In this document: piece after piece, positions 14,161 to 55,233 of the stretch
Layout of the letters: every line of letters begins with the position of its first letter
Numbering within the stretch: position 1 is the stretch's first letter
NCBI GenBank assembly: GCA_965649765.1
Contig: OZ287749.1
Coordinates: 62,930,001 to 62,994,000, forward strand
DNA: 64,000 nt
DNA from: Bispira polyomma
Taxonomy: Eukaryota
Reading direction: 5' to 3'
The notes under the pieces: generated by a model
What the model was told of the DNA's origin: nothing
Seen by the model: the letters and a program-made list of their open reading frames with translations, nothing else
Databases searched by the model: none
Translations under genes and position numbers: made by a program

Positions 14161-15429
14161 TACACTATGATCTCTCCATGTTGAGTAGACAGAGTTATCT
14201 GCCTCCAAAACAGCTGTGTGTTTTTACTGATGTTACGGCTGTTAGAAACAGAGTGGGTCCCATTAGCAAAAATTAACAAATACAATAATGATATCATATA
14301 ATGTATCATCAGTAAAATGTTAGCATCCTGCGGTGGGACAGATACTCGGTCTACTTGTTGAGGTGCAGGTCATTCTGAATTGTGATGTGTATATTATATA
14401 ATGTGGAAAACTCACTGCTTTTTTGCATTTGTGCTAGCAATTGTACTTTTGTTTGTGATTTTAAAAACCTAATATCATATGCATTGGTATTTGCATTTTA
14501 TGTGAGTGTTTGTATGTGTGTTATTGATTACTGATTATGCAGTATTAAAAATGATAAAAAAGACTGCATAGACTGATAGACATATAGAAACATTACATAA
14601 GTCTGATGGCAATCGACTTGTGACATGTGCGTAGTTGCAAAAATTGTAGCTTTTTATAGCTTCATATAGCTTTTTTCCACAACAGAACACACAGTAGAAA
14701 ATTGCAACACATACCTCCATAATCACAATGAAGTTTGAACCTTATAGTTTATTTGTGACCCTTTCTTGCATCGCAATGTGGCTTTGGGCCTAAAACTGAG
14801 AAACTTGGCATTGCTAACTAAGCAAAGATTAAATGTTATTGGGTCTGGCCTTTTTTGAGCCAAAAGAAAGACTTTAACCTTTCTGAAGATATGGCAATGT
14901 TACTACATGAGAGGGCCATTTTTGTATGCAGCACATATTACTTCTATTCGGGCAAATTGCACACAATTCAGGTTATTGGCATTTATGTACATAAGGACCT
15001 GCTAACATTTTGTTACCATTTACAAGGCAGCTTTTTAACATAACATTAAAGGGTCTGTGAGAAAGAAAACCATACATGCAACTCTGTTTATGGTGATCAA
15101 TAGGAAAAACACCTCTCATAAGGTTGTTTAAGGTTACGCTGGTTTCTATCCAGTTTGACACATTGACGTAGCTTTGATGAGCTGCTTGCTTTTAAGCACA
15201 GAATATGTATTGTAGAAGTGGAAAGGTTAGCTGAAAATTTTTTTTATATCAGTAGAACCTCCATTATCTGAACTTCTGTTCTCTGAATATTTAATCTGAT
15301 GAACACACTGTCACTCTCTCAAATTTACATTTTAATATTGTTTTATACTAAAATGCCTTTTCTGCTTTTTGACCCTTCTGTTATCACAACAAAATCATGC
15401 TCTCCCAACATGTACCTGTCTATTTTCAC

Positions 15430-25822: not shown

Positions 25823-28800
25823 GATTCTGTGGAAGTAAAAGAATTGGCCAAGGAAATTAATGAAAACCATAGAGCCTCTCTGTCATCATTGTCCTCAGAT
25901 GAATCCTCAGACTTAGAAGGTGGTTATGTCTTAATGGAGAATAAAAAGACATCTGTGTTGGAATTACTTCCCGATTGTAAAGCCGCCAATGATGACATCA
26001 AGTACAAGCATAGATTCTGTCCGAACACACGGCTGAGCACCCTTAGGAACATTGAGAAATGGATGAACAGGGACGAAGAGCAGCCTCGCTGTATGGTCAT
26101 CAAGGCAGCACCGGGTATGGGAAAGACCTCACTGTTGAAGGAAGTTTGCTCCAAGTATAGCTTACAGTTACTGGCAGACCATTTCTTCTCACACTGTAGC
26201 AACAATCTGGGCCATTCTGATCTCCATCAGGTTGTACTTTCCTTGGCACATTCTTGCACAGAGAAGCTGGATAACTATGTCGGATGCTTGCCAACTCTGG
26301 AAGAAGTAAAACAGATTGTGTACTATGGGTCCACAGAACAGGTACTGGACACGTTTATTTATAGTGCTTTGTCTTCAGAAGGCCTTGGTCATGAAGAAGA
26401 CAGGAAGATGCTGATAGTGCTGGATGCCCTAGATGATTGTAGTTTCTCTGATAGGGATGCTCTTTTCAGATTTGTAAATGAGTTTACACAGAAAGCACCA
26501 AAGTGGTTGTATCTTCTGGCAAGCATTAGGGATGAAAACCAACTTACAAGTTCTCTTACTGCTGTCTCTGTCTTAGATCTATGTGATAATGCAGAAAATA
26601 TGGCGGACATGAAGAAAATGATGAAGGAATCATTAAGCCCCTTTATGGACAGAATCAGCTTGGATGGTGGTTTAACTCAATTGGCCAAAAAGTCAAAAGG
26701 ATTAGCACTGGCTGCATCTCTGTATAATAGAATGCTCAATGGAATGGATAGACAGAAAGGAATTGCACTAAGGGAGATTGATATAAAGTTTCCAACAGGA
26801 ATGAATGGAGTTTTAAGGAAAGTTATGAAAGACTTTAAGGCACTTTTAGATAGAGAAGCTGATGCAAGCTATTTCTATAATACTTTATTAGGCATGCTAT
26901 GCTTTGCGAGGGAACCAATCCCTGTTACCTTTGCAGAGGCCATTGACATCCGAAATGCAGACCAAGTCTGGAAGGCGTTAAGTGTCATAGTGGATACTCA
27001 TGGCCAGAAGGAAGACTGCAAGTCATTGTACCACAAAAGCATAGCAGAGTGGTTGCTAAATGAAAAACTGTCAGAAGAATTTCAACTAGATGGTGTGGCA
27101 GCAAGAAATGAGATTGGAAGGTTATGTATCAACTGGTTGTCACCGATGTTAGACCAGATGCCATATGAAGATACTCCTGTGTTTAGATATGCTCTGAAAA
27201 ATTCAGTGAGTCATTTGACTGACATTCCAAAGCAACAGGAAAGCATAGGAAATATACTTTGCAGTTTGAGAGCCACTCAGATGAAGCTTGAAATGAATGG
27301 GGTCAGTATTCTCCATGTAGGAAATGAATACAACCATACTCACACACGGATTGGGGATGCCAACAAAGAAATCATCCTAAAGGATTACATGAAGAAAGTT
27401 CCAAAGCTGTCTGAACAACTGCATTTATGGTATTCATTTTTGGCAGATAATCAAATTGAACTCTTCCATTCCCCAAAGAGTGTCTACCAGTTGGCAGCTA
27501 ACTATGTTCACAGACCACGGGTACAACAGAATGCAAGGGTAGAGTTAGCAAAACAGTCTTGGTTAGAAGATATATCTACTGGTCTTGTGGGTAATGTTGA
27601 TTATAAAGTACTACCAGGTGAAGCCAGGCTAGTTGATGTATCTCCTGATGGGAAGACTATGGCAGTAGTGCTAAGTAGTAGTGAAGAAAATGTACAGTTA
27701 GTCCAATACAGTACAAGTACCTTGGAAGAAACATCAAGTGTAGACATAACAGCTCTAGAAGATCGTAAAGGACTATGTTGCAAATTCTTACCTGACAATG
27801 CAAATGTATTTGTCGGATCTCTTGTGAAGTATGTAGGTAGAAAGGGCAAGATAATTCCAAGTGATCTTGATATGAAATCACTTCAGGTCAAACAGAAGTT
27901 CAGCGTTGAATGCTGTACTGTTTCAACCAAATACTTGGCTACATCTTTATCAACATTCCCTTGGGGCGGTCGTTCTGTCCATTTAGCAGTGTTTGGCTTG
28001 AAAGAAAAAAAGGCTGTAAAAACATTAGAAGTGCTTAACTTTAGGTTTGGTGGAAGTGCAAACTTTGGCATCAGATGCTGTGCGATATCTCCTGATGAAA
28101 AACAAATCATAGCCTGTGTAAAGGACAGCAACAAGAACCAATTGAAAGTGAATGTTTGGAATATTGGCAAGTGGAACATTGCGCATACTCTTGATGTTGG
28201 TGGAGAAAATATACTGAGATGTCATTTCTTTGAATCAGAAAAAATCATTGTGGATGTAAAAATGGTCGACTCTAACATTTGTAGATCATATATCTGGCCA
28301 TGTCAAAAGTCAGGTCAGCCTAGCATTGTAGGAAGGGAAAAGGCCAGTTCTGTTAGCTGTACATTTCAGTCTAAGGTGGCTGTCGTGTCCTGGGACAACA
28401 GGAACAAAGGTCAAATAAGTGTGTGGAAGAGGGGACAGGCACATGAGGACGCAAACACGTATAAGTTCAGTGGAATGCAACTCAGTGATCAAACTGTCTT
28501 CTGTCAATCGTATGCCATTTGCCTCAGCAAGGACATCATGCAAGTATTTAACATCAGTGATTCAGAAGTCATGGATAAGGCTGTGACCGAACTAGATGAT
28601 CTGGACATTGCTGATGTTACCTTTATGCCCAGGTCAGATACCAGCATTCTGTCACATGTAGCTGCAAACGATGACGAATGTATGCTTTCAATTTTCAACT
28701 GTGATAGTAAACTAGATGACATACATGTCAGGTCAACAAAGGTACCTCAGCAGACATTGATACAGAGTGAGAGTCTGGTATATTCTAATGTGTTCCAGGG

Positions 28801-29779
28801 CATCAATAAACCTGGCAAGAAATGCTACACCTCTCATGATGGAAAATACTTGATCATGTGCTATGGTAATGGGATATCCTTGTGGAATGACCAGACAGGT
28901 AAACTTGAGACCTTGCCGTTTCCTGATGATATTGACAGTGACCAGCTGATTGATATGTGTATTCCTTCAGCCAAAGAGTCTATCCTGGGGGTAGTGTATA
29001 AACAGCACAACCACAAGGTCATACTTTTTGATTTGCGAACCAAGAAAGAACTAAGGAGAGTAGGCTTGGAAGGTGATCCATTGAAAGCTGCTGTGACTGA
29101 TATGACTTTTATTCCACACAATGGTGCTTTGATATCTTATCACCGAAACATGGAGCACAAGTTAGTGGTATGGAACCAAAGTACTGGAGCAGAGCGAAGC
29201 GCCTTGTCATGCAAGATCAATTTCTGCCGAGTGTCTTCTTCCTCAGACCGGTTTGTTCTTTGCTGCAGAAAGATGGAATCTGGTCATTTACAACTACGCA
29301 ATAGTGATGCCACGTTTTCTCAGAAATTACAGACCCCGGAGACATGGTCATTTCAAAGGTTCGACTTTGATCTGGAATTTTCTCTGGACGGGACTGTTTT
29401 GGCGGGTGTTCAGAGCCAGGGTCACATGACACGAATATGGAATGCTGGGAATGGTGACATATTGAAAGATTTTACGTTGGGTTTTATTGGATCACCTTCC
29501 ATAGTGGGTATGATCACAAATACACATATGGCCATCTATGATGGAAGGATCCTGGTTATAGATATTGCCTCTGCTGAACTATTGAGTGTCACCCCCCTAC
29601 CACAGCCAGGCCATGGACGTCACTCAATTGCTCAGCTCTCGGTGTCTCCAAGGGGTAATATTATTGCTGCGCTCTACAGTGATGGTGCTATGATCATGCT
29701 GAAGTGTCACAACTTTAGCTCCGTAAGGATGACCACTACTCTGCAACGAATGAAATCATTCTCAGGGCTACACAACTAA
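25823..29779 (+). CDS. Gene 1 terminal exon: NACHT NTPase, helical/winged-helix region and WD40 beta-propeller repeats
   Basis: 1318 open codons. Pre-NACHT motif FCPNTR..L..IEKW, Walker A AAPGMGKT, Walker B MLIVLDALDDC, sensor-like LASIR, KSKGLAL, winged-helix LYHKSIAEWL, YALKN..SHL. WD40-like blades follow (VSPDGKTMAV, CAISPDEKQII...VNVWN, ISLWN, VILFDL, LVVWN, FSLDGTVLA...TRIWN, VSPRGNIIA). Acceptor gctttAG|GAT. Confidence 0.93.
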   Translation, partial: DSVEVKELAKEINENHRASLSSLSSDESSDLEGGYVLMENKKTSVLELLPDCKAANDDIKYKHRFCPNTRLSTLRNIEKWMNRDEEQPRCMVIKAAPGMGKTSLLKEVCSKYSLQLLADHFFSHCSNNLGHSDLHQVVLSLAHSCTEKLDNYVGCLPTLEEVKQIVYYGSTEQVLDTFIYSALSSEGLGHEEDRKMLIVLDALDDCSFSDRDALFRFVNEFTQKAPKWLYLLASIRDENQLTSSLTAVSVLDLCDNAENMADMKKMMKESLSPFMDRISLDGGLTQLAKKSKGLALAASLYNRMLNGMDRQKGIALREIDIKFPTGMNGVLRKVMKDFKALLDREADASYFYNTLLGMLCFAREPIPVTFAEAIDIRNADQVWKALSVIVDTHGQKEDCKSLYHKSIAEWLLNEKLSEEFQLDGVAARNEIGRLCINWLSPMLDQMPYEDTPVFRYALKNSVSHLTDIPKQQESIGNILCSLRATQMKLEMNGVSILHVGNEYNHTHTRIGDANKEIILKDYMKKVPKLSEQLHLWYSFLADNQIELFHSPKSVYQLAANYVHRPRVQQNARVELAKQSWLEDISTGLVGNVDYKVLPGEARLVDVSPDGKTMAVVLSSSEENVQLVQYSTSTLEETSSVDITALEDRKGLCCKFLPDNANVFVGSLVKYVGRKGKIIPSDLDMKSLQVKQKFSVECCTVSTKYLATSLSTFPWGGRSVHLAVFGLKEKKAVKTLEVLNFRFGGSANFGIRCCAISPDEKQIIACVKDSNKNQLKVNVWNIGKWNIAHTLDVGGENILRCHFFESEKIIVDVKMVDSNICRSYIWPCQKSGQPSIVGREKASSVSCTFQSKVAVVSWDNRNKGQISVWKRGQAHEDANTYKFSGMQLSDQTVFCQSYAICLSKDIMQVFNISDSEVMDKAVTELDDLDIADVTFMPRSDTSILSHVAANDDECMLSIFNCDSKLDDIHVRSTKVPQQTLIQSESLVYSNVFQGINKPGKKCYTSHDGKYLIMCYGNGISLWNDQTGKLETLPFPDDIDSDQLIDMCIPSAKESILGVVYKQHNHKVILFDLRTKKELRRVGLEGDPLKAAVTDMTFIPHNGALISYHRNMEHKLVVWNQSTGAERSALSCKINFCRVSSSSDRFVLCCRKMESGHLQLRNSDATFSQKLQTPETWSFQRFDFDLEFSLDGTVLAGVQSQGHMTRIWNAGNGDILKDFTLGFIGSPSIVGMITNTHMAIYDGRILVIDIASAELLSVTPLPQPGHGRHSIAQLSVSPRGNIIAALYSDGAMIMLKCHNFSSVRMTTTLQRMKSFSGLHN

Positions 29780-38075: not shown

Positions 38076-40194
38076 CAACATTAAATTGTTTACCTTATTA
38101 AAAAGGGGAAAATTATGTTTTGGTATGAACATATTATTAATCTTATATAATCTGTTAATATATAGAGCAAGCCATAATATACAGTCCAATGCTCATGATA
38201 AAAACTACAGGGAACCCATGTTTTAATTAGGGCAATAGGTAGGTTTCCAATCCCAATGACTATAAAATTTAGTATATTAAAATGTATGACAAATTTAATT
38301 GTATTGTGGTTTTTATCAAATAAAAAGTTTTTCTCTCAAGATGGCTATGGTCTGAAAAGATTTTTATGCCAGTGTCATTACTGCAATACCAATATGCTGT
38401 GAACCAGTCTGTATGAACAACAATATCTAGAAATCTATTAATGACGGTACATTTGAGGCCACAAAGACTATGTAATATATATATTAAAAAGTTAGTTAAT
38501 TGGTGACAATAAACTGCTAATATTTCATGCGATAATGGTAAGAAAATAGTTGCCGGTAAATATTTGCACATACATTGAGTTAGCAATTGATGTTTAGATT
38601 TCTACTCAGCTGCAAACAAATAGATTAGTTTTCTCTTTAATGTTAGTTACCTATACAATGCAAAATAAATTATAAAATGGCTGTTTGAAGAAAAAACAAA
38701 AACTTAAAACACTCTATCTAATTAAACCTATGAATTATATTGTAAATTTACCATTTCATCACAAAATTATTTTAAAAAAAGTGCAAGTTACTGCAAATCA
38801 ATTTCGAGGGATGTGGAGTTTTTATCTATCTGTCAGATTATTGGTTATTATGCATACTGCATGTAAGAGGCGAGTTGCATGTAAGTTGAACCTAATTCAA
38901 CTGTCTTATATACTTTAAAAACTACAACATTATTTGACACAATTATTAAAAGCAACGCAATGATATATTTCTTCAAAATATGATGAGTTTTGAAATTTTT
39001 ATGTATTGGTGCTGAAACAGCCCTCTACCAACAAATCTCTTGTGCGTACTCGTGACCTTCTAAAAGATTACAGTAAATTATAGGTTTTAGATGATACCAT
39101 TTCAGCTGGGTCGTTGTTCTTTTTCGAAGCTAGCAAAGTGAAAAAAAAAAAAATACAGCCTGAGAACAAACACCAGGCAACACTATTTGTAGCTTACAAC
39201 GATCCAACACGGGGATATTAAATGATAAAACTCCATAGAGTTGAAACGTAAGCAATTGTGTTTTTTTTTTTGGTGTGAAACGGATTCTATGAGGTATCGA
39301 AAGTGAGCGATAATGGGGGTTACCAGATATTTAGCAAATATGGAATAGTGGTGGGAGACCAGTTCACACCCGGGTAGCAATCGACGACCCACCTGAATAA
39401 ACAGTGAATATCTCTTTGTAGGAAAATTAGTTTTTAACCGTTTTTTTTTTTGATAATTTAAGCATAATATTATAATAATTGATTTTACATAATCATTGAG
39501 TGTTTTCTTCATGGTTAAAACAATATTCACTGTTTTAATTTGGGTGGCGTCGATTAGTAACCGGGCATGAACTGGTTTGCTACCACTAGCATGTATTTAC
39601 CTTTATAGTGTACTAGTGTCATTGTGTCAACATAATTATGCCACTGTTGCTTGTCTTAAAATGATGGGTAACTCTATCACAATATTTACCATACTAACAA
39701 GCTTCACAGAACTCCCTGGATATTTATGAAGGAAATTTTTTGAAGAAAGTAAGAGGACCCTAGGGGGAGATATCTCTTACTGTATCATGTCCTAGTAGGG
39801 GATGCTTTTGACAGCAAAAAGGTCATACATTATTTCATCTGCAGAAATGCTTCTTGTACATATGTACCCAGTGAGTGATGCTGAGGTTCTTCCCTAAGGT
39901 TCTTCCCTAAATATAAGTATACAGTGGGGGATGCTATCTTACTACTGTATGTCCACTGAATAACTGAGAAATTTATTTTCATGCTGTCCAAATAAAAGGG
40001 GAAATAATTTAACAGACTTCTATACAAGAGGGTGATAATGGTGGATTTACTGTGTGGGCGAATGTGTTTATGTCATGAAGGGTTGGGGTTTGATTTTAAG
40101 TTTGTAACAACAGCTCAGAAAATGTTCTTGGATGTTTTGGGTGGCCCTGAAAATAACCGATTGTGTTTTTCTGCCTCAGGCTCAGGGGAGGCTT

Positions 40195-40892: not shown

Positions 40893-41668
40893 TTTTTGCA
40901 TGATTATGCCAATGCTTATTGACATGATCATGTTTTCCTGGAGAAAGAAGGAGATAGTGAAGACCCTTGGTGACGCATGGTTATAACGTGTCAACAGGGT
41001 AATCTCTGAATCTGCAGGGGGTTGTGCTCTTATATTTAGTATATATACACTCTTTTGTCTCTAGTTGGTCCAAAATTAATTTGGTGTGATTATGTGCGGT
41101 GTAGTAGAAGTTATTCAAGTTTTATATATTGGGAGCCTCAGATTTGATTGAAGGGTCTATTACCGCCTATTTCAAATGGTTTCAAAAGGAATATACAAAC
41201 AGTGTATGTCAAACATTAGGTGTGGGAAGATATATAACATATTTATACATACTTTGGTTGATTGGTGGTTGTGGCTGTAAGAAATATAAAATGTGCCACC
41301 ATCTTAAATTCGCCACCAAAAAAAGGTTGTGTTTTGGGTAGAATTGTGGTTAATATTTGCTTCAATTGATATTTTTATGACTAATATTTGCCTTCCTTAC
41401 CAGTTATTTTTTCCAGTTTTTATTTATTTGGCTTAAATTTTAGGGGTGGCGAATTTTAGATACAGGAGCAAATTTTAAATTCCTTACTGTATCAAGCTGA
41501 GGAAAAAAATATTGTGAACCCAATATATTGCATACAAGTTTACTGGACTATTTTAAAGGATAAAAGTTACAGAAGCTATATGTCTCACAATATGAACAAG
41601 ATAAGAGTGGTCAGTAACTTGCTTTTAGTGGCATTATCATAATATGGCCGCCAGGCCATTCTCCTCTC
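40893..41668 (+). repeat. Diverged direct duplicate of 46080-46798 plus 47705-47764
   Basis: Colinear match from TTTTTGCATGATTATGCCAATGCTTATT through ...ACAGAAGCTATATGT, resuming at AACTTGCTTT...ATATGGCCGCCAGGCCATTCTC. Confidence 0.85.
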
Positions 41669-41719
41669 CTCTTCCGACCTAACGGAATAGCAATGACCTA
41701 TCTTTATGATCGTAAGTAG

Positions 41720-42995
41720 TTGTCCCGACCTATCCTTGTCAATCGGCATAATTTATACCAATCTTGCACTGGACCGCAACAAAACAGTGGCCCTCACCCT
41801 TCTGGATCTTTCAGTAGCATTCGACACTATTGATCATGGCCTGCTCTGCGACACTCTCAAGCAGTGGTTTAGAATAAATGGCAATGTCCTTGGATAGATC
41901 AGATCCTACCTTACTCTCAGAGCACAAAGAATTAAATTAGATGATCATGTATCATCCTCCATTAACCTACCATACAGTGTACCCCAGGGATCCGTCCTTG
42001 GGCCCCTACCTTTCACCCTTTATACACATCCTCTCAGCACTGTGATCAATAATCATTATATAAAACACCACATGTATGCCGATGACACTCAAATCTATCT
42101 CTCTCTCAACCCTAAAAAGCAAATAAAGTTATTAACCTACTTGCAGAATGTCTGTCCGCTGTCCAGGCGTGGATGAACTTCTTCAAACTAAAACTAAACC
42201 CAGACAAAACAGAATTTATTCTTATTGGAAACGAGGAAAACAGTGCATTCTTGAAATCTTTGTTTCCCACATCTTTTCTAGGAGAAAACATACTACCTTC
42301 CGGAAATGCTAAAAAACTTGGTGTCACTTTGGATTCAGCTTTTTCATTTGACACTCATATTACCAGCATCTGTCGTTCCTGCTATTACCATGTATACGCG
42401 ACATCAAAAATCCGAAACTACTGTCAATAGACACTGCGGTAACTGTGCCTAATGCCCTTGTCAGCAGCCGCCTTGACTACTGCAACTCTCTTCTGTACAG
42501 AGTAAACAAGTCACAGATTAAAAAGCTCCAGTCCATTTAAAATTACCTATGCAGGGTTATTTTTCACCTTGGTGGTCATACAGACGTTACTCCTTACCTC
42601 AAAAATTTACACTGGCTGCCCATTCACTCTCGTATTTAGTTCAAAATACATGTTACCACTTTTAAGGCTGTAGTCACACAACAGCCCTCCTACCTTGCTT
42701 CCCTTCTCTCCTTCAGTAACCCTGAAAGAGGCAACAGACTCTCTGTTACTTCGGTCAGACCCATCAGGAAGACGGAATCCAGAGCGTTCTCGATTGCAGC
42801 TCCTTTGTTATGGAACAGTCTCCCAGTTGACCTCAGATCAGTTGCTACACTTAACGTCTTTAGGAAAAAGCTTAAAACCCATCTTTTTAACCTTGCCTAC
42901 CCGCCTTAGCTTCCTGTTGCACACTTCCACTTATTTCCTTACAACTTTGCTGTGCCCATGAACTTTATGATTGGATTAATGATTCTGCTGTTGCG
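41720..42995 (+). mobile_element. 5'-truncated L2/CR1-group LINE (RT and C-terminal ORF2), decayed
   Basis: LLDLSVAFDTIDH, VPQGSVLGP, HMYADDTQIY, KLKLNPDKTEF, NALVSSRLDYCNSLL, LHWLPI, FRKKLKTHLF; several stops and frameshifts. Confidence 0.92.
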
Positions 42996-43592
42996 AAATG
43001 CTTCCAATAAATAGAAAGATCTTCGGTGTAATACAACTTAATCCTATTTGTGACTTATAAAATAAAGCACAAATAAAACCCGCCCTTTCTCAAATTTATA
43101 CTGTACAGCACAGATATCAGGGACATCTACGTAGTAATATAATCGGTCAATGAATGCTTGTTGTAGTTTTTTCATTATATTTTAAATGATTCAATTGCCC
43201 AGTAATTACTAAGGTAGGCAAGTATTTAAAAAGGCCAATAGTGTCCATTTCAGTATTCTAGATATAAATTACCTAGCTACATGTATACATTTTGACATAC
43301 TTAAGTGTGGACTAACCGAGTAAATTACAAATAACATTAGTGTTACATACTATGTAGCAACTGCCAGTTTCATTTAACATTATAGAACACAATAATATAT
43401 TTGCACATGGTGTAGGTTAGAAATGGTCTTCAATAACAGATGCTGTCATTGTACGTTACATATGTATATAAATATTTTATCCAAAGCACATAACTTCTTA
43501 TTAAAAAAATACACTTCAACAGCTAAAAGTGATAGATAACTGTGTTGCTGATTTTAACCCTGTATGAAGTTTCTTTGTCAGAACAGTAATTA

Positions 43593-44185
43593 AACTGAAC
43601 TTTGCACTTCTTCTAAAGGTTAACCTTGTGTTTTTTCCAGCCAAATTCTTTTCATCCCAAATTTTGCTATCATAAATGGTAAGACCAACTCCCCAGTACT
43701 TATCATGCGGGCTAGCCTCTACAATTCTCATGTCCGAGGTATCTTTTAGAAAATTGGCCAGATCTTTGTGTTGCTGAAATTTTTCCTGAGTGGAATCTTC
43801 AGAAATTCATTGCAGACCTCACTCTAGGAGCTGTAGGTAGAGTTATTTACCTTATGTCCCAGTGATTTAGTAAACTTTGAATCTGATGTTTGTAGAATTT
43901 TTTCAGCTATCACCTTATCATTGAAGTAAACTGTCTTTTTATGCATCAAAGACTGTTCAGTAGATGAAAAGTTCTTGTCTTCAACTGTGATATCACAAGG
44001 GTAGTGATTGGATAGAGGTGACCTGGATGTGAAGAATGCAGTGATATCATTTTTAGTGATGATAGAGATGTGCGCAGGTTGAAGTTCATTAGACAGGGTT
44101 AAAATGTCATCAGTGGTGTATAGCTTGCCAATTAACTGCAGCTTGTCCATGACTAATTTTGCTTTATAGTTTCCTTTTAATCTCT
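43593..44185 (-). pseudogene. Decayed NADAR (YbiA/DUF1768-like) domain preceded by a LINE-ORF1-C-terminus-like segment
   Basis: Minus-strand translation: KAKLVMDKL..GKLYT...FFTSRSPLSNHYPC...FSSTEQ...KSLGHKV...(TAG)...[frameshift]EKFQQHKDLANFLKDT..IVEASPHDKYWGVG...GKN. These match the NADAR motifs SNF/Y, E-Q/H, GRKV, KF.Q, VEASP.D..WG.G and G.N. One stop and at least one frameshift. Confidence 0.85.
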
Positions 44186-45248
44186 TTATATATAGAAGAA
44201 CTTCAGGGAAGAACCTCAGCATCCCCCATTGTGGACATACAGTACTAAAATAGCATTCCCCACTGTATACCTATATATAGGAAAGAACTTCAGGGTAGAA
44301 CCTCAGCACCCCCCCACTGTTTGTTTGGTGTAATATAAATGTATATTGATTGTGTGTGTTCTTTGATGTAAATAAATATATATTTACCCAATTGTATGCT
44401 TATTTCTTGTAGCATCTATACAGTGGTGTTTAAATTATCAAAATCAGTTAATACAACACACAACTCTTATAGTAATTAACACAGTCAAGTAGAAGTTCAA
44501 TCAGCCAATGAATCCATACATGGAACTGCTGCAAATGGGTTCCGTGTATTTAGTAATACAGCATTTCTTATATTATCCCTACTAGGTTACGTCAGAAAAA
44601 AGCATGTTTAAGTGAGAGATAAATAAATAATTTTCTGCAAATTAGGCAATCTATCATTGTGGAGAGCACCGATAAATACTAACCAGTCTTCCATATAAGG
44701 ACATTTAACTGTTTCTGATCTTCGACTTGACAAGAACCGCCAACGATGTCTTACAGTTTATAAAATGATGAAATTTAATCAAATATCAAAAGTTTAAATT
44801 ATATATAAGAGAGTCTCCACATAAATCATCACAAGCCATAAAATACAAAACCATAATTATATAGAGGGTCTTTGGACCATATTTATATGCTACTCTGAAT
44901 TAAATTAAACGGCCTTCGAAAATGGCACTTATTCGCTTTTGGGTCAGGTTTTCTCGCCGTCTCCGCATTATCATCTTCCTTTAACACTTCTATCAATATT
45001 AAAAATATCAAAATGATTTTTGAGAGTTATCTTCTTTAGGCTTGGGAAACTTTTTCTACATGTATCAAGGTCATATGGCATATATGTTACAGGCATTAAT
45101 ATCTGAACCCCAGTCGATTTTTATATCAATCGGGCCATAAACGAGTTATTGACAAGTGTTTGATTTACCAATGCTATAAAAAAATACATGTGCATCAAAA
45201 TATCCCCTTTTGTCACATATTTTATAATGTTTTCATCTTAACTAAACT

Positions 45249-48283: not shown

Positions 48284-48403
48284 TGTTGAAGCTTAGTTTG
48301 ATGTACTATTTCGTTAATACTTTATTGTTTGAAAGACAGGTATTCAGTTTTAATAAGGTTAATAAAAGTGACGTATTTTTATGTTTACAGGATATGTAAC
48401 ATC

Positions 48404-49162
48404 ATGGTTCAGTCACAAGAACAACTGAAAGTCAAGAAACTGTTGATTGAAGCCATAACCACATTATGTAAAAATGGACTTTCTTACGAGACAGAGTTTT
48501 GTATCGAGGGTTTGTTGGGCATTACATTGGACAACAAAGACATCCTTTTGGTTAACATCAAAGAAAATGTAAAGTGTGGGGACATTAAGTTTGACATTAC
48601 ACCGGATGCGTGTTCATCGCTAAACTGTGATGTTTCTAACGAGGCTGTCTGTGATGTCTTGGTCCCTGTACCTATAGGCATCATTCCAAAAAGGCGGAAA
48701 AAGAGAAAAAGCAGCTATGTCAGCAAGAGAAAGATTGAGATGGTTGAATCTCCCATTAGCGAGTACAAAGATTCTGACAGTTTTACTCAGGATCATGCAA
48801 GTGCCTTCAAATTCTCCGGTGATATCCATGGTCTTAGAACTCAGCAGCTGACAAATAACCTTGATGACATTCCACACCTTGATGATTCTGAGTATATCTC
48901 TCTAACCTACGACGAAGGGGACAAGGACCATATTAGTGATAATACATCAGCTCATTCCAGTGCACTTCCCAAAGACGACGCCTATGGCCAGGGCAGCAGT
49001 TTGCAGCAGTCCCCCCGCATCAGTCTCGGAGGTGATGAAATCCCACTAGATCTGGGGTTACATGCAGACTTGCAAGGGAGCTTAAGTGCAGTGTGGGATG
49101 AACCGAACATGGATATGCCAGTGAATCTGTCGGAAAATCAGAATAAACAGGAGAATTTTCAG
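48404..49162 (+). CDS. Gene 2 coding exon 1: compact N-terminal domain (EQLKVKKLLIEAITTLCKNGL...IEGLLGITLD...LLVNIKE), NLS PKRRKKRK, PLDLG and PVNLS motifs
   Basis: Acceptor atgtttacAG at 48389-90; atcATGg at 48404; donor CAG|GTAGGA at 49162/63 (phase 0); lies within ORF 48329..49174. Confidence 0.85.
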
Positions 49163-49239
49163 GTAGGAATTTAGGTCAAATAAAGCCAGATGTACATTTT
49201 GTATTATGTTCATGCAATAATCATTTCTAGAAATACACT

Positions 49240-53007: not shown

Positions 53008-53750
53008 TTATTATTATTATTATTATAGATTTTTAACGCGCTTTATTGATGCTAGGCATCTTCTAAAGCGCAACAGCAGAATCATTAGTCCAATCATTAA
53101 GTCCATGGAAATTGCAGAGTCGTAAGGAAGGAAGTGGGAGCGTGCACGAGGAAAGCTAAGGTGGGTAGGCAAGATTAAAAAGATAGGTTTTAAGCTTTTT
53201 CCTAAAACCGATAAGTGTGTCAACTGATCTGAGGTCAACTGGGAGACTGTTCCATAACCGTGGGGCTGCGGTGGAGAACGCTCTGAAACCCGCCTTTCTG
53301 ATTGGTCTGACCGAAGTGACAGAGAGTCTGTTGCCTCTCTTGCGGTTACTAAAGGAAAGAAGGGAGGCAAGGTAGGGTGGCTGTTGAGTGATTACAGCCT
53401 TAAAATTGGTAACGTGAATTTTAAACAAAATTCGAGATTTAATGGGCAACCAGTGTAATTTTTTGAGGTAAGGAGTAACGTCTGTGCGACAACCCAGGCG
53501 AAAAATGACCCTACATAGGTAGTTTTGGATGGACTGGAGCTTTTTAATGTTTGACTTATTTGCTTCGTACAAGAGAGAATTGCAGTAGTCGAGGCGGCTA
53601 CTTACAAGGGCATTTGCCACAATTATCGCTGTTGTCCATGGACAAGTGGTTTCTGATTCTTTTGATGTCGCGTATGTGGTAATAGCAGGAGCGACAGATG
53701 TTGGCAACATGAGTATCGAACGAAAAAGCTGAATCAAAAGTGACACCCAG
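53008..53750 (-). mobile_element. 3' fragment of the same L2-type LINE with (TAA)n tail, in intron 2 of gene 2
   Basis: ORF 53156..53746: ANALVSSRLDYCNSLL...LHWLPIKSRILFK...APRLWNSLP...FRKKLKTYLF; (ATT)n at 53008-53025 is the minus-strand tail. Confidence 0.92.
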
Positions 53751-54422
53751 GTGGCCAGGACCTAGCCATTGTCCACGGGAGCCGTGCTCCCCAAACATTT
53801 TTAATTTAGTATATTGGCTCACATTCATATTTATTATAGGTAAACATGTTGCCATATGAATAAGACTGAAAACTGAATGATAAGTGTTAAAGCTGCGGCG
53901 ATCAGTTGAGAGATCGATGCATTAGTCGACTGACAAATACAGTGATGATTAGTTAAGAGATCAATGCATCAGTCGACTATGACAAATACAGTGATGATTA
54001 GTTGAGAGATAAGTAAAATTTTGATGCTAGACATGGGAATAAATTGAATATAAATATGGGGGAGTGAAATTGAGTTCGTAAAATTGAGTGATAGTTTGAT
54101 AATAGAAGTTAGGATACTAGAGGTTTAGAAATTAAGTTAGTAACAGTGTAATCCAGTTAAACTAACCATTAGGCATGGCAGTTTTCATCAGTACGTGTTA
54201 CTCTCTATACTAATAGATGTGAGCAAAATATATGGATAATAAGAGTTCCAGATAACGGAGGTTTCTGGGCTTATATTCACAAAGATTCTTTGTCTTAAAT
54301 TGTTTGTCTCAACCAATATGATTGGCTTTGAGAATTTGATTGGCTGAGACTAAGAAAATTCTTAAAAAATGGTATTCTGAATTTCTGTTTCTGTTGGTTA
54401 ATTGTGGCCTCAGTATAAAGTG

Positions 54423-54603: not shown

Positions 54604-54670
54604 TAATAGCATTGTACTATCCACATAGCGGTAACCATCATTCTGTGTTAATCTCTTTATACTACTATAG

Positions 54671-55233
54671 ATGTGACTGGCTGCGAGAGCACACAACCAC
54701 TTGACTTGACTGTAGGCCGTCCAGAGGAGGGAGAATTTGACGACAGCTTCGACTCCAACTTGCTGTGCATTGACCAAGATCACGATACAGAGCTGATCCT
54801 GGACGACAGCTTGGGGTCCCTGGAGCAGTACACGTGTATCTGTAGTCGGGCGTTCTCCGACTACTCCGTCTACACCGATCATGTGGCCAACTGCCACAAG
54901 GCCCGCCTCACCCCGTACAAGGCGTGCGAGATCTGCGGCAAGTACTTCTTCTCCAACTCTGGCTACGTGAAGCACAAACGCCTCCACCTGGGTGCCTACA
55001 AGTTCCACTGTGATATCTGCCATAAGGGGTTCTTTGACCGCACCCACATGCGGGCCCACATGGACAGCAGCCACTCCAAGGTGCGCCGCTACGAGTGCAA
55101 GCACTGCAGCAAGAGTTTCTTCTGGAAACACCACCTGAAGCGCCACCTAGGCACCTGCGACCAGGCCCGCAGGCACTCCTCCTCAATGGTGGTGGAGGAG
55201 TCTGGTGCCCAACTTGATAGCTTACAAAGCTAG
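54671..55233 (+). CDS. Gene 2 terminal coding exon: PLDLT motif plus four zinc fingers (atypical CxC..HC, two C2H2, terminal C2HC)
   Basis: Acceptor actactatAG|AT (phase 1); CEICGKYF...HKRLH, CDICHKGF...HMDSSH, CKHCSKSF...HLGTC; stop TAG at 55231-33. Confidence 0.92.

Follow-up and report, generated by a model that had tools for sequence, protein, structure and literature searches.

Background

All NADAR proteins tested so far are reported to hydrolyse G-ADPr, and some of them C-ADPr, on both DNA and RNA (PMC12945103; PMC11125620). Phage NADARs counter DarTG1 (PMC11825919), the NADAR linked to DarT1 has Asp at the position of E125 (PMC11543638; residues here and below in the numbering mapped on 8BAU), and according to PMC11125620 it is unknown what NADARs do in animals. 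The fusion of a NADAR domain to a retrotransposon ORF1 is itself not new: PMC12477816 records NADAR in the ORF1 of several Crassostrea gigas Tx1 families held in Repbase, and in the Pol of Ectocarpus Gypsy elements. Our literature search found this as the sole paper joining NADAR domain, LINE and ORF1 (and found none joining DUF1768 and ORF1); the portion of its text at hand names Tx1 and Gypsy carriers only, with no analysis of domain order, selection, active site or ORF1 swapping.

Among LINEs of the CR1/L2 lineages, Type II ORF1s and transfers of whole ORF1s are known (PMC4120745), a 2A-like motif has been reported in mollusc CR1s (PMC3708506), and Zenon elements are described as having no ORF1 (PMC13343379, PMC10294476) and a poly(A) tail called unique to Zenon among CR1-group elements (PMC13343379).

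The locus described here lies in a 64,000-nucleotide stretch of Bispira polyomma DNA (contig OZ287749.1, positions 62,930,001 to 62,994,000), referred to as the window. We read it as a dead piece of a LINE of the CR1 group. The L1-type ORF1-NADAR of that LINE likely came from an L1/Tx1 element, and in intact copies we predict its NADAR domain to work as an N-glycosidase on base-linked ADP-ribose; this reading as a whole has, in our estimate, a probability of about one half. What may be new is an ORF1-NADAR carried with a CR1-group ORF2, its ORF1 nested among those of Tx1 elements (unless Repbase, which lay outside the search, already lists a CR1 carrier).

A decayed ORF1-NADAR fragment in the window

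The fragment (Table 1) is 897 bp long, with one stop and two frameshifts, in a window whose GC content is mostly 0.30-0.41. BLASTN against the intact element L021 gives 749 identical positions out of 926 (81%). A preliminary description of this DNA had proposed a NADAR domain with a stop at a likely Trp codon and frameshifts, all of which is borne out by alignment to intact relatives; the Pfam NADAR model matches in two pieces, at 35.0 bits (cut-off 35.1) and 48.2 bits. The natural ORF1 stop lies at 43590-43592. The window NADAR retains the site equivalents E43 (43956-43958), K50, K75, E125 (43717-43719), D130 and W133, while R79 is changed to His and W89 to TAG.

The extent proposed earlier, 43593 to 44185, needs revision at both ends. 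Homology to the element continues some 310 bp past the stop into the inter-ORF spacer before giving way to unrelated DNA, and ends upstream at 44174. In six-frame translation an open frame at 44270-43827 (-) joins the upstream peptide (from 44165) in frame to the N-terminal half of NADAR. This frame runs on into an 86-bp satellite starting upstream of 44174; because the satellite is unrelated, codons 44175-44270 do not belong to ORF1.

Table 1. Features of the fragment, its flanks and a related intact element (positions are those of the window unless a locus is named)
Feature	Positions	Strand	Basis or remark
Decayed internal LINE fragment (3' part of ORF1 and start of inter-ORF spacer)	43278..44174	-	BLASTN against L021
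End of L1-type ORF1 C-terminal domain (CTD) and linker	44049..44174	-	aligns to residues ~243-283 of intact ORF1 P0003
NADAR domain including natural stop	43590..44048	-	Pfam PF08719, alignment to 8BAU
Premature TAG at conserved Trp codon	43824..43826	-	TGG (Trp358) in intact copies
1-bp deletion (frameshift)	43788..43789	-	alignment to intact relative
2-bp deletion (frameshift) near C-terminus	43627..43628	-	alignment to intact relative
First ~310 bp of ~930-bp AT-rich ORF1-ORF2 spacer	43278..43589	-	alignment to intact relative
~86-bp tandem satellite; flank, not element; abuts 5' break of fragment	44176..44335	.	388 matches among 40 candidates scored
3' part of unrelated LINE, presumably L2-type; flank, opposite strand	41630..42995	+	RT branch 1.06 from CR clade; label rests on motifs
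2A-like motif	L021:5686-5706	-	just before APE domain; element also has ORF1

Element ends and ORF2 are absent from the fragment, and the 6.5-kb element matches the window at this place only; the rest of it was not found elsewhere in the 64 kb. The genome likewise yields no closer or intact twin: the best long matches reach 81%, and 16 of 43 genome matches span at least 824 of the 897 bases at 80-81% identity. Compared with L021 the window copy has dN/dS 0.33 (dS 0.37, dN 0.12). Taken together, this ratio and the lack of any match above 81% mark the window copy, as judged from sequence, as a member of an older sister subfamily of the L021 family that later decayed and was cut at both ends.

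The parent family and its copies in the genome

The genome (1.04 Gb in 75 contigs, 14 of them large) was searched with a 120-aa query, giving 1227 first-look candidates, of which 150 were scored, all at E<=3e-17, too many and too strong for a chance resemblance. Many of these matches sit in open frames of 430-450 aa, so the intact relatives foreseen in the preliminary description do exist. A NADAR profile gave about 2147 first-look candidate sites (150 scored). Sixty loci of 10 kb were fetched, picked by hand, and thus non-randomly, from the best profile hits; a LINE ORF2 lies downstream of ORF1-NADAR on the same strand in 57 of them. By ORF2 class, 43 of these picked loci are L1/Tx1, the arrangement of the C. 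gigas Tx1 families, 14 are of another class (CR-class), to which the window family belongs, and three have none or an unrelated one. Given some 2147 candidate sites and this proportion of LINEs in the sample, transposon cargo may account for many of the NADARs annotated in invertebrates.

The family closest to the fragment, L021-L028, is a 6.4-kb element with copies 96.7-98.9% identical, common 5' and 3' ends and an A-rich or poly(A) 3' tail. Four of the eight copies are 5'-truncated; L022 is flanked by a 14-bp target-site duplication (TSD), and those of L023 and L028 were read by eye. The element comprises a 5' UTR of ~620 bp, a 436-aa ORF1 (P0003) inside the TSD-bounded unit, the spacer, and an ORF2 frame of 1151 codons that encodes APE and RT (in L021, Exo_endo_phos 29 bits, RVT_1 121.9 bits) with a 2A-like motif. 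No third gene was seen in the L021 spacer, at a threshold of 200 aa or longer. The locus is almost certainly a dead fragment of the sister of this young, recently spread APE-type LINE. Within the family, dN/dS is near 1 (7 pairs; 0.5-3.8 in NADAR), the value to expect from changes that follow insertion; it was set aside.

Architecture of the ORF1 protein

The intact ORF1 of L021 scores 148.4 bits with Pfam PF08719 (cut-off 35.1); PF02994 gives no direct Pfam match, and a profile search retrieves human L1 ORF1p at E=2.3e-14. An AlphaFold model built from a 51-row alignment (pLDDT 89.6) places a helix at 50-131, an RRM at 135-217 and a CTD at 221-277, followed by a complete NADAR fold (residues ~284-436 of P0003) with pLDDT >94. 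In Foldseek the model matches the Phytophthora NADAR 8BAU (TM 0.76), YbiA 2B3W (0.75) and human L1 ORF1p 2YKP (0.70), and these are the only kinds of match at E<=0.001. On sequence and model, then, ORF1 is an L1-type (Type II) protein, with a predicted coiled coil, single RRM and CTD, and a C-terminal NADAR domain. It shares the basic N-terminus, coiled coil, RRM and CTD of human L1 ORF1p (2YKO/2YKP, Type II, Transposase_22), to which it is ~20% identical, and differs from it in the added NADAR. The profile and Foldseek matches uphold the earlier suggestion that the segment upstream of NADAR resembles the C-terminal domain of a LINE ORF1, and the dispersed copies with APE and RT in the downstream ORF2 place the fusion, as had been supposed, on a mobile element.

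Probable exchange of ORF1 between LINE superfamilies

The ORF2 of the window family scores 68 bits against human L1 ORF2 and 70 bits against R2, compared with 308 bits against L1 for the Tx-class L040. Set against Tx1, its RT falls with this genome's L2-type RTs at 100/100, the CR1- and L2-type labels being ones that we take from motifs and from same-genome sequences rather than named references. In the RT tree the CR rows are split from 19 Tx rows at 100/100 (L050, L057 and L071, which have no usable RT, were left out). An L1/Tx1 placement was rejected on these grounds, the L1 score being no better than that of R2. A 2A-like (StopGo) motif just before the APE domain, of the kind reported for mollusc CR1s, is present at 12 of the 14 CR-class loci and at no Tx-class locus. 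By inference, with the class set by same-genome RTs, the window family is CR1-group and Zenon-like: it shares with CR1-Zenon a poly(A) tail, an RT of apparent CR1-group type and a sister lineage that has 5' tandem repeats and no ORF1. The placement is by description, the tree holding no Zenon sequence, and the family is not filed as Zenon because it has a 436-aa ORF1 where Zenon has none.

The ORF1 trees tell a different history. They keep 25 of the 60 loci (left out were ORF1s shorter than 365 aa, and any copy with a representative at >=85% identity) and, like the RT trees, use LG+G4 with no mixture. The three CR-linked families form one clade (bootstrap 92-97), which joins the Tx-linked L051, L058, L066 and L067 at 100/100 (100/99 with outgroups), inside the Tx diversity. 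Rooting with free NADARs plus foreign ORF1-NADARs, or with IMPACT-type ORF1s, gives the same nesting. Monophyly of the Tx-linked ORF1s (the 22 non-CR rows together) is rejected by the AU test with p-AU 0.029, for a grouping chosen once the first tree had been seen. Between the CR-linked and the four Tx families, ORF1 distances are 0.97-1.04 and RT distances 4.3-4.6 substitutions per site; within classes, ORF1 usually outpaces RT in divergence (median ratio 1.25). A tree of NADAR alone unites the same seven rows at 88/88 with the CR families not forming one clade, so that there may have been one transfer or two.

Very probably, then, these comparisons reflect the swap of a whole ORF1 from an L1/Tx1 LINE onto a CR1-group LINE. 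It would differ from the transfers known within CR1/L2 in that the donor is identifiable and comes from another superfamily, L1/Tx1, and would make a clean inter-superfamily LINE exchange. The graft may have followed the route proposed in PMC4120745, in which an ORF2-only element inserts into the spacer of another LINE. Within the Tx1 class, the ORF1 and RT trees also disagree on L041 relative to L054/L060 and L038/L065, suggesting further ORF1 swaps.

Sister lineages were seen among twenty further ORF2 relatives, whose RT tree carries a long-branch-join warning; its row for L086, which came from an L2-type element inserted there, was disregarded. L088-L090 form a CR1-group lineage with tandem repeats upstream of ORF2 (periods of 46-172 bp in L088) and no ORF1 detected there. 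L092:2271-3572 (+) encodes an L1-type ORF1 that ends in UPF0029 (IMPACT/YigZ; 49.3 bits) in NADAR's position, and the same UPF0029-ended ORF1 occurs in the CR1-group LINEs L093, L095, L096, L097, L098 and L100. The L092 family is young (99% identical, 6.65 kb). Genome-wide, PF01205 has 427 first-look candidates, of which 150 were scored; our literature search found no publication joining UPF0029 and a retrotransposon. The sister CR1-group lineages thus lack ORF1-NADAR, having either no ORF1 or one ending in IMPACT/UPF0029.

Predicted activity of the NADAR domain

Site residues were mapped on the 8BAU alignment, with residue roles taken from PMC11543638. Among 57 aligned genome copies, E43, K50 and K75 are present in all 57, D130 and W89 in 55 and E125 in 53; choosing loci among the top profile hits biases these figures toward intact sites. 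Of the 150 top database representatives, 132 combine RRM-CTD with NADAR; E125 is kept in all 132, E43 in 131, and E43, K50 and E125 together in 123. Two residues that contact ADP-ribose in 8BAU, D86 and R93, lack conservation in genome and database copies and R79 is variable, which suggests that the substrate may differ. Across 25 family representatives conservation is highest in NADAR (46%; other parts 37%, for the RRM-CTD, and 24%), and pN<pS in 300 of 300 family pairs, at saturated synonymous sites, a mark of selection. We therefore predict, with good though not full confidence, that NADAR is catalytic in intact copies.

The LINE domain has the fold of NADAR/YbiA (8BAU, 2B3W) together with E43, K50, K75, W89, E125, D130 and W133. 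It departs from 8BAU, YbiA and DarT1-linked NADAR in being fused to a retroelement RNA-binding protein, in the absence of the D86 and R93 equivalents, and in having no linked toxin. Unlike in the DarT1-NADAR toxin-antitoxin systems, its neighbour is ORF2, not DarT1, and the E125 position holds Glu, not Asp.

Where taxa are recorded, the look-alike clusters of the Atlas are eukaryotic, annelids being commonest among few records; a metagenome scan gave 2 weak loci and a viral scan no match. The database protein P0052, an LTR-type protease/RT polyprotein, begins with a partial NADAR, an arrangement like that reported for the Ectocarpus Gypsy elements. P0137, P0141, P0163 and P0178 are large, with 4-7 matched stretches that are best in the NADAR part, and are possibly tandem NADAR arrays.

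What NADAR may do for the element

In L1, ORF1p covers its own RNA and moves together with it. If ORF1p of this family does the same, it would bring many NADAR copies to the RNA and the insertion site, every particle being loaded with them. ADP-ribose linked to bases would stop the RNA from being translated or reverse-transcribed; by taking it off guanine (N2) or cytidine in the RNA or cDNA of its own element, NADAR would increase transposition. By analogy with known NADARs we propose, at slightly less than even odds, that cleaning element RNA and cDNA of base-linked ADP-ribose is what the domain is for. The writer would be a host enzyme of CARP-1/pierisin type rather than a PARP. CARP-1 homologues (guanine ARTs) are reported mainly in bivalves (PMC12945103), and a genome profile search for an ARTC-type writer with PF22596 and PF01375, run with no positive control, gave 0 matches. 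The L092 family spreads in the same genome without NADAR.

The same null search sits as well with an account that we consider unlikely, in which NADAR is catalytic but does housekeeping, clearing small ADP-ribose derivatives or damaged nucleotides, or processing RNA ends of transposition intermediates, a role suggested in PMC12477816. YbiA cleaves riboflavin intermediates and the targets of non-DarT NADARs are stated to be unknown (PMC11543638), a link of NADAR to RNA repair has been drawn (PMC9503650), and the lack of conservation at D86 and R93 is in keeping with this account. Covalent fusion to an RNA-coating protein, however, would point to a nucleic-acid substrate, and a domain spread over two LINE superfamilies yet dispensable in sister lineages sits better with a role in conflict than with a core step.

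The lost ligand contacts and variable R79 would also suit a non-catalytic module for binding ADP-ribose or RNA, or for setting the spacing of ORF1p trimers. Near-universal E125 and E43 in the database representatives, and a complete, confidently modelled fold close to 8BAU, make this quite improbable.

Finally, the marks that NADAR erases might be PARP-made: ADP-ribose on proteins, on RNA bases or on the ends of DNA, either where the element inserts or inside antiviral granules. The genome is rich in PARP domains (44 matches), and RNA viruses carry NADAR or Macro in a mutually exclusive manner (PMC9503650). Against this, NADAR as tested leaves PARP15-made guanine-N1-ADPr and 5'-phosphate ADPr (bioRxiv 10.64898/2026.03.31.715305) and thymidine-ADPr (PMC11125620) in place; the many host PARPs are therefore poor writer candidates, and the idea seems rather improbable. 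A processed pseudogene, the alternative named in the preliminary description, or a host NADAR gene captured by chance among transposon debris would be in keeping with a copy that has neither element ends nor its own ORF2, but is ruled out for practical purposes by continuous alignment through CTD, NADAR and spacer with full-length copies of a TSD-flanked LINE family, and by the same-strand ORF2 at nearly all fetched loci.

If the proposed cleaning role holds and NADAR is active on the retrotransposon particle, it would be a sign that hosts defend themselves, in a way not yet described, by ADP-ribosylating nucleic acids, and would give a function for shellfish CARP-1-type enzymes; the young intact copies offer a ready protein for assay. 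A bolder extension, which we regard as speculative and unlikely to hold in full, is that the C-terminus of ORF1p is a swappable counter-defence slot. Invertebrate hosts would restrict retrotransposons through CARP-1-like ADP-ribosylation of guanine or cytidine in RNA or cDNA, the Tx1 ORF1-NADAR would have been selected on a Zenon-like CR1 element while its sisters carry IMPACT or nothing, and the whole would be a eukaryotic counterpart of DarT1 versus phage NADAR.

Other features of the window and genome

The ~86-bp satellite beside the fragment recurs at window positions 39861-39956 and is dispersed in the genome, with long arrays elsewhere. The group of the flanking, presumably L2-type LINE has further fragments in the window at 53069-53921 (-) and, more weakly, at 15428, 32872 and 37609. 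An uninterrupted frame of 1318 codons at 25823-29779 (+) encodes an NPHP3_N/NACHT-like NTPase with WD40 repeats (STAND-type protein). A C2H2 zinc-finger exon at 54652-55233 (+) and a 290-codon frame without Pfam match at 48302-49174 (+) are possibly exons of one host gene. Elsewhere in the genome, G000:C1:70791640-70862889 holds three tandem open frames of 1640-2326 codons, each with two PARP-domain matches.
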